5,906 bases of DNA from IMG/VR virus record IMGVR_UViG_2778261591_000026, positions 1 to 5,906 of that record; one strand, written 5' to 3'. The DNA comes from a virus (lineage: Duplodnaviria; Heunggongvirae; Uroviricota; Caudoviricetes). Below are positions 1 to 5,906 of the stretch, piece by piece; the stretch's first letter is position 1; each line of letters starts with the position of its first letter. The translations under genes and the position numbers were made by a program. Under the pieces are notes generated by a model. It had not been told where the DNA came from. It was given only the letters and a program-made list of their open reading frames with translations, and searched no databases.

Positions 1-153
1 AGGGTTGATGTTTATCAGGGGCAAAATGGTCAATCAATCACTCTTGAATTACTGAATGCAAAGATTGGATTTGCAGCTTCAGGAAATGGCCCGCAGCAGC
101 AAAGTAGTAACCAGCAGAACACTCCTGTATACGACGATTCCATCCCATTCTGA
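1..153 (+). CDS. 3' end of a gene (5' truncated by window edge); C-terminus resembles single-stranded DNA-binding protein (SSB)
   Basis: Frame 1 is open from position 1 to TGA at 151-153. Translation ends ...GNGPQQQSSNQQNTPVYDDSIPF: a Gly/Gln/Pro-rich low-complexity tail ending in an acidic D-D-x-I-P-F tip, like the canonical SSB C-terminal tip DDDIPF. Not in the ORF track because it has no in-window Met start. Confidence 0.45.
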   Translation, partial: RVDVYQGQNGQSITLELLNAKIGFAASGNGPQQQSSNQQNTPVYDDSIPF

Positions 154-176
154 TTCAGAAAAATAAGGATTTAATC

Positions 177-473
177 ATGCCAGCGCCTCTGTATGGTGCG
201 GATGACCCGCGCCGCTGTTCCGGCAATTCCATATCGGAGGTGCTGGAAAATATCAAGAATAATCTCGACGCGTTTCTTGCTCTGCCACCAGAAACAAAAG
301 AAGAACGGAAGTACCGACGCGATATACAACTCGCAGAAAAACAGGAAAAAGACCGAATAAACGAAACATCAATCCGACCATTCCGCAAAGCCACATATAC
401 CCACTTCCCTGAATATATCGACCCGCGCCTGCGTAATTACCGCTCACGCTATGGCGCTATCAGTAATGACTGA
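177..473 (+). CDS. Hypothetical phage protein, 98 aa
   Basis: ORF track entry; ATG at 177 preceded by AAGGA at 165-169; same strand and tight spacing with neighbours. No recognised family. Confidence 0.55.
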   Translation: MPAPLYGADDPRRCSGNSISEVLENIKNNLDAFLALPPETKEERKYRRDIQLAEKQEKDRINETSIRPFRKATYTHFPEYIDPRLRNYRSRYGAISND

Positions 474-483
474 GGAATTTACC

Positions 484-774
484 ATGAAAACAATGAAGCT
501 AAACATCGACCTCGGAAAATACGTTATTACCGGAACCAAACACGACCTGATTCTTAGTGAAAGAGGAATTATCAAAGAAGGCGAGAATGCAGGGAAAGAA
601 ACACTAAGCCGTATCGGTTATTACAGCAAGTTTGAGCATCTGGTTAAAGAATTATGCAACCGTGAAATCATGTTATCTCAGGCGCAGACGCTACAGGATA
701 TTCAGCAACATATCGAGAATTTAGGTGTGTCACTTAGCATGGCTATTGACCAGTTCGTGGAGAGTAAATCATGA
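484..774 (+). CDS. Hypothetical phage protein, 96 aa (an in-frame longer form could start at 451)
   Basis: ORF track gives 451..774. ATG at 484 is preceded by GAGGA at 473-477 with 6-nt spacing and begins right after the upstream stop (471-473), so 484 is the preferred start. Stop TGA 772-774 overlaps the next ATG (ATGA). Confidence 0.6.
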
Positions 775-938
775 GAGGACTTGCATACAATCCCGGCATT
801 CTTCCAGCAGAAATGATTATTCGCCAACGCGTAAAGCCAATGCCATCGAGAGAGGAATTGCTTAAGAGAAATTCTTTTCCTTCAGTGAATCAAAACAAAT
901 ATCTGAATGCGATGTGGCGTAAAGGAGGCAAGCAGTGA
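771..938 (+). CDS. Small hypothetical protein, 55 aa ([55 protein letters not shown]), absent from the ORF track
   Basis: ATG at 771 overlaps the upstream stop (ATGA); its stop TGA 936-938 overlaps the GTG start at 935 (GTGA). It exactly fills the gap in an otherwise coupled operon. GGAGAG lies at 759-764. Confidence 0.4.
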
Positions 939-1393
939 GCGAAATTAACTATAAAGAACTGCGCGAGGCGGCGAAACAGGCAACGCAAGATGAATGGGTA
1001 GCATATATTTTGCCGGGCCATAACGGCATTTATCCTGCGCGCACGTCTGAGGGTAGGCATTGCGGATACTTTATTGACTGGCCTGGTACTGATGGACAGA
1101 GGAACGCTAGTGCCAATGCCCGTTATATCGCGGCTATCCCACCAAAAGTTGCGCTGGACCTCCTAGGCGAAATTAAGCGCCTGGAGGACAAAAATATTGA
1201 TGCCATGTGCCAAATTGCAGAGCTGGAGAGCAATCGCGCGGCGCTGGCGGCGGAGCATGGTATTCAGATTGCAATAAATGAACTGCTTGCTCTGGCCCCG
1301 CGTCTGGATAAACGAGCGGTGGATGCACTCTCTGTGGCTGTGGAGCACCTGTGTAAACTGATTAAGAAGGAGGCAGTCAGTGAGCAAAATTAA
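935..1393 (+). CDS. Ead/Ea22-like phage protein, 152 aa (paralog 1)
   Basis: GTG start at 935 with AAAGGAGG at 921-928. N-terminus [17 protein letters not shown]... resembles the N-terminal region I recall for lambda Ea22 and Ead-family proteins. Shares N-terminal and central motifs with the next ORF. Confidence 0.75.
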
Positions 1394-2054
1394 TTACCAG
1401 GCACTGCGTGAGGCGGCAGAGAAAGCAACGTGGGGAGACTGGGACTCATATAAACCACACCGTGGCGCACGTGGTTATGAGGTCCGACTAAGTAGTCAGG
1501 CCATTGCGCAACACGTCCTGAAAAACAACGCTGAATTTATTGCTGCCTTTAATCCAAAGATTGCTTTGGCACTACTGGATGAACGGGAAAGAAACCAGCA
1601 ATACATCAAACGCCGCGACCAGGAGAACGAGGATATTGCGCTAACGGTAGGGAAGCTGCGTGTTGAGCTGGAAGGCAAAGACAGCAAAATAGCCAATCTT
1701 ACCGCCGAACGCGATGCTCTTCGTGAAGGTGAGATGGGCGACGCTAGGCATAGCAACACACGGGCCGCAGCTGATATCTACTTCCAACTGGTCGAGGAGT
1801 GCGAAATTCCTGCTGGCCGTTCTCTGGTCGAGTACGTTGACGATATGCGCGAGAAGCTGGAAGCCGCAGAGAAGCGCATTGCTGAGCTGGAGTTGCGGGA
1901 GGTTGTGCTTCCGCAATGCTATAGCATGTTGCATCGCGTCGATTTTGACGAGCCTTACCACACTGAAATGGTTTACAGGCAGCATCAGGTTCTTGAGGCA
2001 CTGCACAACGCTGGAATAAACGTCACCGAAGCAGGTAAAGGAGAGGCATCATGA
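1380..2054 (+). CDS. Ead/Ea22-like phage protein, 224 aa (paralog 2), coiled-coil-rich middle and divergent C-terminal half
   Basis: GTG start at 1380 with AAGGAGG at 1366-1372. N-terminus [17 protein letters not shown]... and motif PKIALALLDERERNQQYIKRRDQENEDIALTVGKLRVELE resemble lambda Ea22 as I recall it. Stop TGA 2052-2054 overlaps next ATG 2051 (ATGA). Confidence 0.75.
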   Translation: MSKINYQALREAAEKATWGDWDSYKPHRGARGYEVRLSSQAIAQHVLKNNAEFIAAFNPKIALALLDERERNQQYIKRRDQENEDIALTVGKLRVELEGKDSKIANLTAERDALREGEMGDARHSNTRAAADIYFQLVEECEIPAGRSLVEYVDDMREKLEAAEKRIAELELREVVLPQCYSMLHRVDFDEPYHTEMVYRQHQVLEALHNAGINVTEAGKGEAS

Positions 2055-2578
2055 GCACTATCACAAGAGAATGGCTGCAGCAGACTATCAACGATTATGA
2101 AAGCGTTCGTGATGAGCTTCCTTTCGGGCTTGATGATTACCAGGGGAATATCCTGGCTGCCCTGCGTATCGCACTGGCATCGCTGGAAGCAGAGCCGGTG
2201 GCGTGGAAGGTAACATTCACGCAAATTGACCGTGAATATAACACGTTCACTGGTATGTATTCTGACAAAGCAGAAGTCGAACGGTGGGTGCGTCTGCATA
2301 AAGCATGTAATTTTCGGGCAGATATAACACCGCTTTATACCGCCAAGCCAGTGCCGGTAACTCCGGATGGTTGGATAAGCTGTAGTGAGCGAATGCCGGA
2401 AATTAGACAAACAGTTATTGGATGGAATGGATATGCAGTTAGACAATGCGTATATACAAGGAATGAATATGCCAAGACACAGAAAGGCAGAGAGCCAAGG
2501 TTTGAAACCTTAACTGGTATATGGCATGGAGTAACCCACTGGATGCCGCTACCAGAACCGCCGCAGGAGGTGAAGTGA
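2051..2578 (+). CDS. Phage protein with DUF551-like C-terminal region, 175 aa
   Basis: ATG 2051 preceded by GGAGAGG. C-terminal segment ...PDGWISCSERMPE...GW...THWMPLPEPP matches my recollection of the DUF551 signature common in lambdoid prophage accessory regions. Stop 2576-2578 overlaps next ATG 2578. Confidence 0.75.
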   Translation: MSTITREWLQQTINDYESVRDELPFGLDDYQGNILAALRIALASLEAEPVAWKVTFTQIDREYNTFTGMYSDKAEVERWVRLHKACNFRADITPLYTAKPVPVTPDGWISCSERMPEIRQTVIGWNGYAVRQCVYTRNEYAKTQKGREPRFETLTGIWHGVTHWMPLPEPPQEVK

Positions 2579-2856
2579 TGGACTCCTTCGCGAAATATAC
2601 GATTATTGACTGGATAGCCTTCCTTCAGGTTTTGCTCATCTGGTTTTATATGGCTTACAGGAGTGGACAGTGGATTGTCAGTGTAGCCTGTAGCAAGGGA
2701 TGGCGTTGGTGGAACCGGAAGAATAAAAAAGCACTGGCATTGGATTCGTTTTACGAAGCATTCAATCTTAACAGCCTTCAACCTGGTTCTGTCATTGTAG
2801 TCACCACTCAAAGCGGCATGACCATTCAGATTCATAAACCAAAAGAGGAAAAATGA
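2578..2856 (+). CDS. Small predicted membrane protein, 92 aa (the ORF track's 2521 start is an in-frame extension inside the upstream gene)
   Basis: ATG 2578 with GGAGG at 2566-2570 (7-nt spacing), coupled to the upstream stop. Translation has one strongly hydrophobic segment (IIDWIAFLQVLLIWFYMAY) followed by a basic patch (KGWRWWNRKNKK) and a roughly 45-aa tail. No recognised family. Confidence 0.55.
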   Translation: MDSFAKYTIIDWIAFLQVLLIWFYMAYRSGQWIVSVACSKGWRWWNRKNKKALALDSFYEAFNLNSLQPGSVIVVTTQSGMTIQIHKPKEEK

Positions 2857-2942
2857 TGTGGCCTATATGTGTTAATTGCGGACGGATGTGCCTATCTGGA
2901 TGGTGCCGAAAGTGCGACAAATGCACGAAGCAAAGACAATAA
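2853..2942 (+). CDS. Candidate Cys-rich micro-protein, 29 aa (MMWPICVNCGRMCLSGWCRKCDKCTKQRQ), possible zinc-ribbon-like peptide
   Basis: ATG 2853 overlaps the upstream stop 2854-2856 (ATGA); purine-rich AGAGGA at 2844-2849. Six Cys in 29 residues arranged CxxC-x3-C-x4-CxxCxxC. Too short for the ORF track; coding status unproven. Confidence 0.3.
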   Translation: MMWPICVNCGRMCLSGWCRKCDKCTKQRQ

Positions 2943-2976
2943 CAATCCTCGCACTCGCGGGGATTTCTTTTATCTG

Positions 2977-3002
2977 AACTCGCTACGGCGAGTTTTGTTT
3001 TA
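2977..3002 (+). terminator. Candidate hairpin plus U-rich tract (weak intrinsic terminator or RNA structural element)
   Basis: AACTCGC (2977-2983) pairs with GCGAGTT (2988-2994) around a 4-nt loop TACG, followed by TTGTTTTA. Lies in the 72-bp non-coding gap before the 55-aa ORF. Confidence 0.25.
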
Positions 3003-3014
3003 TGGAGATGATAA

Positions 3015-3182
3015 ATGCACTTCCGAGTCACAGGCGAATGGAATGGAGAGCCATTCAACAGAGTTATCGAAGCAGAGGACATCAATGACTGCTATAACCA
3101 CTGGATGATATGGGCGCAGATAGCAAATGCAGACATAACCAATATTCGAATTGAAGAACTGAAAGAACACCAAACCGCCTGA
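3015..3182 (+). CDS. Small hypothetical phage protein, 55 aa (MHFRVTGEWNGEPFNRVIEAEDINDCYNHWMIWAQIANADITNIRIEELKEHQTA); same position as the small ORF preceding xis in lambda
   Basis: ATG 3015 preceded by GGAGA at 3004-3008 (6-nt spacing); clean translation. Prefer this over the overlapping track ORF 2869..3108, which has no RBS and runs across the 2977-3002 hairpin. Confidence 0.55.
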   Translation: MHFRVTGEWNGEPFNRVIEAEDINDCYNHWMIWAQIANADITNIRIEELKEHQTA

Positions 3183-3196
3183 TGGCGGTTTTTTCT
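3173..3196 (+). terminator. Candidate rho-independent terminator directly after the 55-aa ORF
   Basis: AACCGCC (3173-3179) pairs with GGCGGTT (3184-3190), a 7-bp stem with 5 GC pairs and loop TGAT, followed by TTTTTCTT. The ORF stop codon sits in the loop. Confidence 0.4.
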
Positions 3197-3235
3197 TGCG
3201 AGTAATTGCGGAGACTTTGCGATGTACTTGACACT
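3196..3235 (+). promoter_or_regulatory. Probable cII-activated pI-type promoter for int (cII half-sites TTGC-N6-TTGC at 3196-3209), overlapping the xis start
   Basis: TTGC at 3196-3199 and 3206-3209 separated by 6 nt, the spacing of cII sites in lambda pRE/pI/paQ. Location at the 5' end of xis matches the known position of lambda pI. Confidence 0.5.
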
Positions 3236-3440
3236 TCAGGAGTGGAACGCACGCCAGCGACGTCCAAGAAGCCTTGAAACAGTTCGTCGATGGGTGCGCG
3301 AATGCAGGATATTCCCTCCTCCGGTTAAGGATGGAAGAGAGTATCTGTTCCACGAATCAGCGGTAAAGGTTGACTTAAATCGACCAGTAACAGGTAGCCT
3401 TTTGAAGAGGATCAGAAATGGGAAGAAGGCGAAGTCATGA
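3222..3440 (+). CDS. xis: Excisionase Xis, 72 aa, lambda type
   Basis: Translation MYLTLQEWNARQRRPRSLETVRRWVRECRIFPPPVKDGREYLFHESAVKVDLNRP... is recognisable as lambda Xis. Overlaps int by 23 nt as in lambda. Confidence 0.95.
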   Translation: MYLTLQEWNARQRRPRSLETVRRWVRECRIFPPPVKDGREYLFHESAVKVDLNRPVTGSLLKRIRNGKKAKS

Positions 3441-4488
3441 GCGCCGGGATTTACCCCCTAACCTTTATATAAGAAACAATGGATATTACTGCTACAGGGA
3501 CCCAAGGACGGGTAAAGAGTTTGGATTAGGCCGAGACAGGAGGATAGCAATCACTGAAGCAATACAGGCCAACATTGAGTTATTTTCAGGACACAAACAC
3601 AAGCCTCTGACAGCGAGAATCAACAGTGATAATTCTGTTACGTTACATTCATGGCTTGATCGCTACGAAAAAATACTCGCCAGCAGAGGAATCAAGCAGA
3701 AGACACTCATAAATTACATGAGCAAAATTAAAGCAATAAGGAGGGGTCTGCCTGATGCTCCAATTGAAGACATCACCACAAAAGAAATTGCGGCAATGCT
3801 CAATGGATACATAGACGAGGGCAAGGCGGCGTCAGCCAAGTTAATCAGATCAACACTGAGCGATGCATTCCGAGAGGCAATAGCTGAAGGCCATATAACA
3901 ACAAACCCGGTCGCTGCCACTCGCGCAGCAAAATCAGAGGTAAGGAGATCAAGACTTACGGCTGACGAATACCTGAAAATTTATCAAGCAGCAGAATCAT
4001 CACCATGTTGGCTCAGACTTGCAATGGAACTGGCTGTTGTTACCGGGCAGCGAGTTGGTGATTTATGCGAAATGAAGTGGTCTGATATCGTAGATGGATA
4101 TCTTTATGTCGAGCAAAGCAAAACAGGCGTAAAAATTGCCATCCCTACAACATTGCATGTTGATGCTCTCGGGATATCAATGAAGGAAACACTTGATAAA
4201 TGCAAAGAGATTCTTGGCGGAGAAACCATAATTGCATCTACTCGTCGTGAACCGCTTTCATCCGGAACAGTATCAAGGTATTTTATGCGCGCACGAAAAG
4301 CATCAGGTCTTTCCTTCGAAGGGGATCCGCCTACCTTTCACGAGTTGCGCAGTTTGTCTGCAAGACTCTATGAGAAGCAGATAAGCGATAAATTTGCTCA
4401 ACATCTTCTCGGGCATAAGTCGGACACCATGGCATCACAGTATCGTGATGACAGAGGCAGGGAGTGGGACAAAATTGAAATCAAATAA
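3418..4488 (+). CDS. int: Tyrosine site-specific integrase Int, 356 aa, lambda type
   Basis: Translation MGRRRSHERRDLPPNLYIRNNGYYCYRDPRTGKEFGLGRD... ending ...HLLGHKSDTMASQYRDDRGREWDKIEIK is recognisable as lambda Int. HxxR motif (HELR) present and the catalytic Tyr codon TAT is at 4441-4443 (residue 342). Confidence 0.97.
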   Translation: MGRRRSHERRDLPPNLYIRNNGYYCYRDPRTGKEFGLGRDRRIAITEAIQANIELFSGHKHKPLTARINSDNSVTLHSWLDRYEKILASRGIKQKTLINYMSKIKAIRRGLPDAPIEDITTKEIAAMLNGYIDEGKAASAKLIRSTLSDAFREAIAEGHITTNPVAATRAAKSEVRRSRLTADEYLKIYQAAESSPCWLRLAMELAVVTGQRVGDLCEMKWSDIVDGYLYVEQSKTGVKIAIPTTLHVDALGISMKETLDKCKEILGGETIIASTRREPLSSGTVSRYFMRARKASGLSFEGDPPTFHELRSLSARLYEKQISDKFAQHLLGHKSDTMASQYRDDRGREWDKIEIK

Positions 4489-4561
4489 TGATTTTATTTT
4501 GACTGATAGTGACCTGTTCGTTGCAACAAATTGATAAGCAATGCTTTTTTATAATGCCAAC
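4485..4561. other. attP P' arm: Int arm-type sites P'1-P'3 (about 4485-4513, reverse-complement orientation) and IHF H' site (about 4524-4536)
   Basis: Sequence caaataatgattttattttgactgatagtgacctgttcgttgcaacaaattgataagcaatgc is the reverse complement of the lambda P' arm as I recall it. It contains ATAGTGAC arm-type motifs and caacaaattgata, the reverse complement of an IHF-consensus-like TATCAATTTGTTG. Confidence 0.8.
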
Positions 4562-4576
4562 TTAGTATAAAAAAGC
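4562..4576. other. att core (common core O) of the prophage/host junction, attL (B-O-P') read on the opposite strand
   Basis: TTAGTATAAAAAAGC is the reverse complement of the lambda core GCTTTTTTATACTAA. Left flank (ccaac) continues as P' arm; right flank (aggcttcaacgg) continues as host attB arm. Confidence 0.9.
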
Positions 4577-4622
4577 AGGCTTCAACGGATTCATTTTTCT
4601 ATTTCATAGCCCGGAGCAACCT

Positions 4623-5906
4623 GTGAACACATTTTCAGTTTCCCGTCTGGCGCTGGCATTGGCTTTTGGCGTGACGCTGACCGCCTGTAGCTCAACCCCG
4701 CCCGATCAACGTCCTTCTGATCAAACCGCGCCTGGTACCTCTTCTCGCCCGATTCTGTCGGCAAAAGAAGCGCAGAATTTCGATGCTCAACACTATTTTG
4801 CATCCCTGACACCAGGTGCTGCAGCGTGGAATCCTTCCCCGATTACCCTGCCTGCGCAACCTGACTTTGTTGTCGGCCCGGCGGGCACTCAAGGTGTAAC
4901 GCATACCACGATTCAGGCGGCGGTAGATGCGGCAATTATCAAGCGTACCAACAAGCGCCAGTATATTGCCGTGATGCCTGGTGAGTATCAGGGAACGGTA
5001 TATGTCCCTGCCGCTCCGGGTGGAATTACTCTGTACGGTACAGGTGAAAAACCGATTGATGTGAAGATTGGGCTTTCCCTTGATGGTGGCATGAGCCCTG
5101 CCGACTGGCGTCACGACGTCAACCCGCGCGGCAAATATATGCCAGGTAAACCAGCGTGGTATATGTACGATAGCTGCCAGAGCAAACGCAGCGACAGTAT
5201 CGGTGTTCTCTGCTCTGCGGTCTTCTGGTCACAAAACAATGGCCTGCAACTGCAAAATCTGACCATCGAAAACACGCTGGGCGATAGCGTAGATGCAGGT
5301 AACCATCCGGCGGTGGCACTGCGTACTGATGGTGACCAGGTACAGATTAACAACGTTAACATTCTCGGTCGTCAGAACACCTTCTTTGTCACCAACAGCG
5401 GTGTGCAGAACCGTCTGGAAACGAATCGTCAGCCGCGTACGCTGGTGACCAACAGCTACATTGAAGGGGATGTGGATATCGTTTCTGGTCGCGGCGCAGT
5501 GGTGTTCGATAACACCGAATTCCGCGTGGTGAACTCACGTACTCAGCAAGAAGCGTATGTGTTTGCACCGGCTACGCTGTCCAACATTTACTACGGTTTC
5601 CTCGCCGTAAACAGCCGTTTCAATGCTTTCGGTGATGGTGTGGCGCAACTGGGCCGCTCGCTGGATGTTGATGCCAATACCAACGGTCAGGTGGTGATCC
5701 GTGATAGCGCCATCAACGAAGGTTTTAACACGGCTAAACCGTGGGCCGATGCGGTGATCTCTAATCGTCCGTTTGCGGGTAATACCGGCAGCGTAAATGA
5801 TAACGACGAAATACAGCGCAATCTGAATGACACTAACTACAACCGCATGTGGGAATACAATAACCGCGGCGTGGGTAGTAAAGTGGTTGCAGAGGCGAAG
5901 AAGTAA
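4623..5906 (+). CDS. ybhC: Host outer-membrane lipoprotein YbhC, 427 aa (pectinesterase-like, carbohydrate esterase family 8 fold)
   Basis: GTG start at 4623 with GGAG at 4612-4615. Signal peptide with lipobox L-T-A-C (Cys22). Sequence recognisable as E. coli YbhC, the gene next to attB-lambda. Stop TAA at 5904-5906 is the last codon in the window. Confidence 0.93.
   Translation: MNTFSVSRLALALAFGVTLTACSSTPPDQRPSDQTAPGTSSRPILSAKEAQNFDAQHYFASLTPGAAAWNPSPITLPAQPDFVVGPAGTQGVTHTTIQAAVDAAIIKRTNKRQYIAVMPGEYQGTVYVPAAPGGITLYGTGEKPIDVKIGLSLDGGMSPADWRHDVNPRGKYMPGKPAWYMYDSCQSKRSDSIGVLCSAVFWSQNNGLQLQNLTIENTLGDSVDAGNHPAVALRTDGDQVQINNVNILGRQNTFFVTNSGVQNRLETNRQPRTLVTNSYIEGDVDIVSGRGAVVFDNTEFRVVNSRTQQEAYVFAPATLSNIYYGFLAVNSRFNAFGDGVAQLGRSLDVDANTNGQVVIRDSAINEGFNTAKPWADAVISNRPFAGNTGSVNDNDEIQRNLNDTNYNRMWEYNNRGVGSKVVAEAKK

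Follow-up and report, generated by a model that had tools for sequence, protein, structure and literature searches.

The question raised by this locus is whether RNA polymerase moving down the early left operon of a lambda-like prophage meets stop signals before it enters the excisionase and integrase genes and, if it does, whether those signals belong to the integration module or to the accessory DNA in front of it. The window, by which we mean the whole 5,906-nt stretch of DNA analysed (positions 1 to 5,906 of the IMG/VR record IMGVR_UViG_2778261591_000026, Caudoviricetes), comes from a lambda-like prophage that occupies the attachment site of lambda, and its + strand runs in the leftward (pL) direction. 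Overlapping small accessory genes on this strand are followed by orf55, xis and int, all in one direction. From position 2938 on, identity to lambda, 434 and HK022 is about 97%, and before that point the sequence resembles HK106. The homologous position in lambda lies inside the pL operon; pL, nutL and N themselves fall outside the window. The features on which the analysis turns are the following.

2853-2942, + strand: Cys-rich ORF of 29 aa (MMWPICVNCGRMCLSGWCRKCDKCTKQRQ), annotated HK106_030 in HK106
2944-2973, + strand: hairpin A with U-tract; stem AATCCTCGC/GCGGGGATT, loop ACTC, tail TCTTTTAT
2976-3003, + strand: hairpin B with U-tract; stem GAACTCGC/GCGAGTTT, loop TACG, tail TGTTTTAT
3015-3182, + strand: orf55, 55 aa, homolog of lambda lambdap35 and of ORF55 of 434; phrog_676
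3172-3197, + strand: hairpin C with T-run; stem AAACCGCC/GGCGGTTT, loop TGAT, tail TTTTTTCTT
3196-3209, + strand: TTGC-N6-TTGC (3196-3199 and 3206-3209), from the sequence; cII site annotated in HK630
3222-3440, + strand: xis, excisionase; Pfam Exc PF07825, E = 3.9e-41; first gene past hairpin C
3418-4488, + strand: int, lambda-type integrase; annotated int in the lambda and HK106 records

The start codon of the 29-aa ORF overlaps the preceding stop codon (ATGA) and its end lies 1 nt before hairpin A; it matched no Pfam or PHROG family and is one of many alternative genes found upstream of that hairpin. The orf55 product is 91% identical to its lambda counterpart and matched no Pfam family, and the protein has been modelled, speculatively, as an RNA polymerase binder (PMC8614690). 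Further upstream, the adjacent ORFs at 935-1393 and 1380-2054 have similar N-terminal regions and share a later IAA..PK.AL.LL motif; they resemble two Ea22-like paralogs in tandem. At the other end, a P'-core-B attachment junction and then host ybhC (4623-5906) lie downstream of int. Positions 4490-4580 take in a P' arm and, at 4562-4576, the core TTAGTATAAAAAAGC, after which host sequence leads into ybhC; we take them, from the established lambda att sequences, to be the int-proximal attachment junction. Given that this junction runs into host sequence, the prophage in this state lacks the phage sib/tI region downstream of int.

Hairpins A and B occupy the 72-nt interval at 2943-3014, which is the largest non-coding gap in the + strand gene string; the preliminary description of this DNA had called it the only sizeable one of the operon. 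They form a tandem pair in which each member folds independently according to the fold calculation. The arms of A (2944-2952 and 2957-2965) make nine pairs, five of them G-C and one U.G, around a 4-nt loop, with a folding energy of -13.1 kcal/mol (z -5.03 against shuffled sequence) and a predicted RNA 3' end at about 2970-2973. Hairpin B has eight pairs, four of them G-C (arms 2976-2983 and 2988-2995), also with a 4-nt loop (-11.9 kcal/mol, z -3.95); its predicted RNA 3' end is at about 3001-3003, and the Shine-Dalgarno sequence of orf55, GGAG, follows 8 nt downstream. Hairpin C lies over the end of orf55, as its 5' arm consists of the last three codons of the gene and its 4-nt loop contains the stop codon. 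Its arms (3172-3179 and 3184-3191) make eight pairs, five of them G-C (-13.0 kcal/mol, z -3.63), and six T at 3189-3194 form the T-run, with a predicted RNA 3' end at about 3194-3197. None of 200 shuffles folded as well as the native sequence at any of the three sites.

We scanned the whole window under strict terminator settings (at least eight pairs, at least four of them G-C, a loop of 3-8 nt and at least five T in eight), and the + strand sites returned were exactly A, B and C, which are also its top terminator-like matches on that strand; the - strand gave C alone. The same scan of 1000 dinucleotide shuffles found a mean of 0.34 sites, with a probability of 0.002 for three or more, and three sites on one strand within 260 nt occurred in none of them. 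Intrinsic terminators are recognized by stable G+C-rich stem-loops (about 5-14 bp, with a loop of 3-8 nt), by 3' U-tracts and by a gene-end position along the direction of transcription, and the three elements agree with this description. The eight gene junctions upstream of these elements within the window have no hairpins. A search of the window against Rfam 15 gave no match at the gathering score, and between 2700 and 3400 weak generic hairpin matches alone were returned (E of at least 0.09). These results bear out and extend the preliminary description, which had reported a hairpin with a U-rich tail at 2977-3002 and a GC-rich one at 3173-3196, the two bracketing orf55. Both exist, as B and C, and both hold up against the shuffled controls that had been proposed as a check; the bracketing itself has to be amended from two elements to three, given that the tandem partner A had been overlooked upstream of B. 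The observation is therefore confirmed and enlarged, and its interpretation is partly supported.

The putative signals have a direction. Good U-tracts accompany A, B and C on the + strand only; A and B fail on the - strand, where the tail of C, GGTGTTCTTT, is poor and passes the scans weakly. Sequence variation was followed among approximately 200 loci drawn from IMG/VR, GenBank phages and GTDB genomes, which are closely related, so that counts among them are not independent events. The common polymorphism of hairpin B exchanges U-A for U.G and is about evenly split among the loci, and that of hairpin C places A-U, G.U or G-C at pair 3; both preserve pairing in the + strand RNA only, and in the commonest variants the - strand folds are weaker. 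A bidirectional terminator, or a function on the - strand, was accordingly discarded, as G.U pairs become C.A mismatches on that strand and the tails there are poor. Hairpin B, like the 3' arm and T-run of C, is near-invariant among the loci. Formal covariation analysis of the distinct B and C variants of this close family found no double-sided changes, and the scores were not above those of shuffles. Because the family is too close, covariation was not counted as support, and we relied instead on the unrelated hairpins that replace these ones, described below.

Some variation concerns the coding part of C. Window positions 3171-3176, in its 5' arm, are codons 52 and 53 of orf55, and codon 53 occurs as ACC, GCC, GAC, TCC or AAC (T, A, D, S or N), a variability that is unusual for a gene otherwise 91-100% conserved. 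The GAC and AAC variants lose one pair of hairpin C, which leaves four G-C pairs and a folding energy of about -7 kcal/mol, and this counts against a terminator. In the phage 434 record (M60848; positions 530-545 of our extracted locus L085), the 3' arm of C reads GGAGG in place of GGCGG and a G-C pair is broken, which likewise weakens C; two IMG/VR loci share this change, so it may well be genuine and not an error of sequencing.

The preliminary description regarded a terminator at this position as undocumented, and this does not stand. All three hairpins are present in phage lambda itself, where the predicted RNA 3' ends of A, B and C would correspond to about 29,326-29,328, 29,296-29,298 and 29,103-29,105, and the DE3 prophage of BL21(DE3) has this region as well. 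They are already known as predicted or annotated elements, the published and GenBank entries being predictions or annotations. Hairpin A is labelled "tL4 terminator" in the HK022 record (X51962) and "terminator t-L4" in the 434 record (M60848), hairpin C is labelled "rho-independent terminator" in the HK140 record (NC_019710), and M60848 labels "terminator t'-I" a further hairpin, here called C', which abuts pI after ORF114. Relative to the tL4 of both phages, hairpin A is the same sequence in the same place, followed by the same B and orf55. Window positions 2944-2972 differ from HK022 tL4 (L001, 271-299) at one of 29 bases, in the loop, and 434 tL4 (L085, 295-325) is the same hairpin with three changes, having U-A for U.G and a larger loop. 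What differs among these phages is the upstream gene, which is the 29-aa Cys-rich ORF here, ea8.5 in lambda and others elsewhere. For hairpin C the HK140 element is the very same sequence. The t'I of 434 shares with C its position, that is, a T-run, then a single C, then the TTGC of the pI box, but the stems are unrelated (CGCCGCATCAATGCGGCTTTT in t'I, AAACCGCCTGATGGCGGTTTTTT in hairpin C). The t'I hairpin of 434 and HK022 (GCCGCATCAATGCGGC) is not homologous to C and, since ORF114 is inserted there between C and t'I, C is the equivalent of t'I in position only.

Lambda tL3, an N-suppressible, rho-independent terminator of the same operon, was reportedly characterised experimentally by Luk and Szybalski in 1982. 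We rejected the identification of the present site with tL3, given that the tL3 hairpin (approximately 31,265-31,287, inside orf60a) lies about 2 kb further upstream. Hairpins A, B and C share with it the pL operon, the design of a hairpin with a U-tract and a similar energy, and differ from it in sequence and site. In an analysis of the lambda exo-xis region with ARNold, tL3 was listed as t1 of lambda at -14.1 kcal/mol, and A, B and C were predicted as t3, t4 and t5, with Erpin and RNAmotif both detecting most of these (Bloch et al., 2014; PMC4195576). The searchable literature on tL4, tL3, lambda Term-seq and tL1/tR1 RNA-seq yielded neither mapped 3' ends nor in vitro termination results for A, B or C.

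The comparison of loci shows in what surroundings these elements occur. Of 84 loci, 59 lose homology to the window at 2935-2942, just 5' of A, and 19 more at 2958-2967, inside or just past the 3' arm of A; at the other end, 57 of 87 loci lose it at 3196-3202, directly past the T-run of C. In total, approximately 12-19 upstream and 6-7 downstream contexts surround the same core, with the lambda pI/xis module, AlpA-type excisionase modules and ORF114 (in HK022, 434 and Stx phages) among the downstream partners. Read across these loci, A/B-orf55-C is a portable cassette with mosaic joints at the hairpin T-runs and with orf55 as its cargo. Within the close family B is invariably found with orf55, and in loci with a different upstream gene the stem of A is sometimes swapped for an unrelated one, CCGC..GCGG or AACCCGC..GCGGGTT, before the same T-tract. 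In Stx2a_WGPS6, A and B are both replaced by GGAGCTTCGGCTCC with a run of eight T. Homologs of orf55 that are only about 50% identical have a different hairpin with six T over the stop codon (GTCGCTAACTAGCGGC in Tbat2_3 and GGTCGCCTAGCGCGGCC in a metagenome-assembled genome), and the homolog in 15G has a weaker one with five T. The orf55 homologs of Yersinia, Proteus and Morganella have no hairpin, which counts against a terminator. Near-identical lambda orf55 regions were also seen in genomes of unrelated taxa (L213-L229), including Shewanella, Pseudomonas, Chromatium, Bradyrhizobium, Kitasatospora, Oceanobacillus, Paenibacillus and others; the contigs in question often have low coverage and a length of about 48.4-48.5 kb, and this looks like contamination of the assemblies by lambda control DNA.

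A second gene appears to be exchanged at the same joints. In HK022, 434 and several Stx phages, C is separated from the excisionase module by ORF114 (114 aa, phrog_1229), in regions that end with one or more hairpins of their own:

L001 (HK022), 535-960: ORF114 region
L085 (434), 565-991: ORF114 region
L086 (Stx2a_WGPS6), 795-1210: ORF114 region

The gene is bounded by C and by a second hairpin that shares with C either the T-run or ATGGCGGTTT, the latter being the case for the hairpin after ORF114 in Stx2a_WGPS6, and some loci have the exact junction from C to the downstream module without ORF114. Given this sharing, the pattern suggests that ORF114 is gained and lost by recombination from hairpin to hairpin. 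A further hairpin, AAAGGAGCTTCGGCTCC with a T-run, was seen in two places, directly adjoining orf55 on its upstream side in Stx2a_WGPS6 (L086, 556-585) and, in loci without orf55 (L152, L154, L158 and similar), approximately 35 nt ahead of the cII box of pI; to judge from this distribution, it is another portable terminator-like element.

Small accessory genes of this kind recall the morons of lambdoid phages, which in the concept of Juhala and Hendrix are cassettes made of a promoter, a gene and a terminator. The orf55 cassette resembles them in being a small accessory gene with a terminator-like hairpin at its 3' end, in its presence or absence between otherwise similar phages and in having its joints at the flanks; it differs in having no promoter of its own. 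No sigma-70-like site was found in 2943-3014, the sole match of the window being at 4448-4475, and a moron model with a promoter inside the 72-nt gap was therefore dropped. The cassette is for this reason moron-like, not a full moron, and appears to depend on transcription of the operon.

The T-run of hairpin C ends 1 nt before TTGC-N6-TTGC, which we take, from established lambda knowledge, to be the cII recognition box at the -35 region of pI. The HK630 record has a putative cII binding site at the same position, 14 nt past the end of orf55. The preliminary description had drawn attention to this abutment, and the adjacency is exact; C is nevertheless not tied to pI. Across the loci C accompanies orf55, and at least six different downstream modules follow it, so that the abutment is a cassette junction. 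A cII-type box considered in an alternative downstream module (TTGCCTGATTTGC) was set aside, as its spacer is 5 nt and not 6.

When the relationship is viewed from the side of pI, a different regularity appears. We collected 105 distinct 600-nt contexts that contain a lambda-type cII box, and in every one a terminator-like hairpin lies no more than 70 nt upstream of the box (C in 76, C' in 22 and a third hairpin, D, in 7). Among random 78-nt windows taken from these loci, the proportion is 3.3%. These contexts are related to one another, and the counts are to be read as three independent hairpin types and not as 105 independent events. The sequences of C, C' and D are mutually unrelated, C' and D are located downstream of the preceding stop codon, and one C' variant has a compensatory change, from GCCGC/GCGGC to GCTGC/GCAGC. 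The earlier proposal of a stop signal before xis-int gains support from this recurrence, and the predicted terminators themselves agree with the z-scores of the folds, the enrichment over shuffles, the + strand-specific G.U pairs and U-tracts, and the earlier annotation.

Taken together, A, B and C, which also mark the borders of the cassette, are probably intrinsic terminators of the pL direction that N can suppress, predicted to keep unmodified polymerase out of xis-int. RNA polymerase without the N antiterminator, having initiated at an internal or stray promoter or escaped modification on a pL transcript, would stop at A, B and C, and the tandem pair A and B would terminate RNA at the end of the upstream accessory genes. 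Polymerase modified by N would read through all three. N-antiterminated pL transcripts would then be the only source of Xis and Int together, and the pI transcript, which cII activates and which starts inside xis, would supply Int alone. This scheme accords with the proposal of the preliminary description and with the established biology of lambda. The analysis demonstrates the structures, their statistical excess and strand specificity, their replacement by unrelated hairpins in the same places and the earlier annotation, and from these we infer that termination occurs with some efficiency, that N would suppress it and that xis-int would be protected. A point against the model is that the window has no promoter-like site upstream that could serve as a source of unmodified polymerase.

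The mosaic structure of the region could also be read more simply. Given that N antitermination makes hairpins invisible in the pL operon, A, B and C might have no selected role at xis-int and be mainly the borders of cassettes, either leftover terminators that arrived with each accessory gene or short conserved linker patches for recombination between lambdoid phages. The homology breaks at 2935-2942, 2958-2967 and 3196-3202, the variety of upstream and downstream contexts, the joining of different stems to one T-tract, the gain or loss of ORF114 between C and a further hairpin that has ATGGCGGTTT or the T-run in common with it, and the presence of C before AlpA-type excisionase modules and other genes all agree with such an origin, which is compatible with termination. 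Nevertheless, that every sampled lambda-type pI keeps an upstream terminator hairpin, in three unrelated sequences, is more than neutrality predicts, and within the window hairpins are confined to this one cassette, so we think it unlikely that borders are all they are. The hairpins with their T-runs may also be more than terminators, in that they would act as micro-homology joints that make orf55 and ORF114 portable and always place a stop signal before the next excision or integration module, with C in addition tuned by translation of orf55. Entry into xis-int would then be coupled to expression of the preceding accessory gene; the full combination is, in our estimation, rather improbable. 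Its last component may also be stated alone, with C as a translation-sensitive attenuator that a ribosome finishing orf55 would block, so that read-through into xis-int would depend on translation of orf55. A ribosome near a terminator can reduce its efficiency, and lambda-type orf55 has its stop codon inside the hairpin, as do the homologs in Tbat2_3, 15G and the metagenome-assembled genome (L234), whose hairpins are unrelated to C. Stop codons within terminators are, however, common in compact genomes, folding predicted no alternative (antiterminator) structure for C, and C' and D, which replace C before pI, stand clear of the preceding stop codon; we give this attenuator hardly any credence.

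A role after transcription would be of a different nature, the hairpins serving as barriers to 3'-to-5' exonucleases that stabilise the messages of the upstream accessory genes, for example against decay from sib or from processed ends. Their stability, G-C richness, location at gene ends and + strand specificity would suit this function, and in bacterial mRNA decay terminated transcripts also end in such a protective hairpin. A pure stabiliser would need no U-tracts, yet these are kept beside every replacement stem; stabilising and terminating roles moreover usually coexist, and protection in place of termination strikes us as very unlikely.

If the predicted N-suppressible terminators are functional, unmodified RNA polymerase would meet in A, B and C its last obstacles before xis and int, and this would help to account for the dependence of the excision functions on N antitermination or cII. 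It would be a small refinement of the textbook circuit and not a new principle, and the cassette result fits existing ideas on mosaic joints and morons. For the annotation of lambdoid prophages the comparison is of practical use, as it identifies orf55 and its flanking hairpins as one mobile cassette and finds an upstream terminator hairpin at every lambda-type pI sampled.
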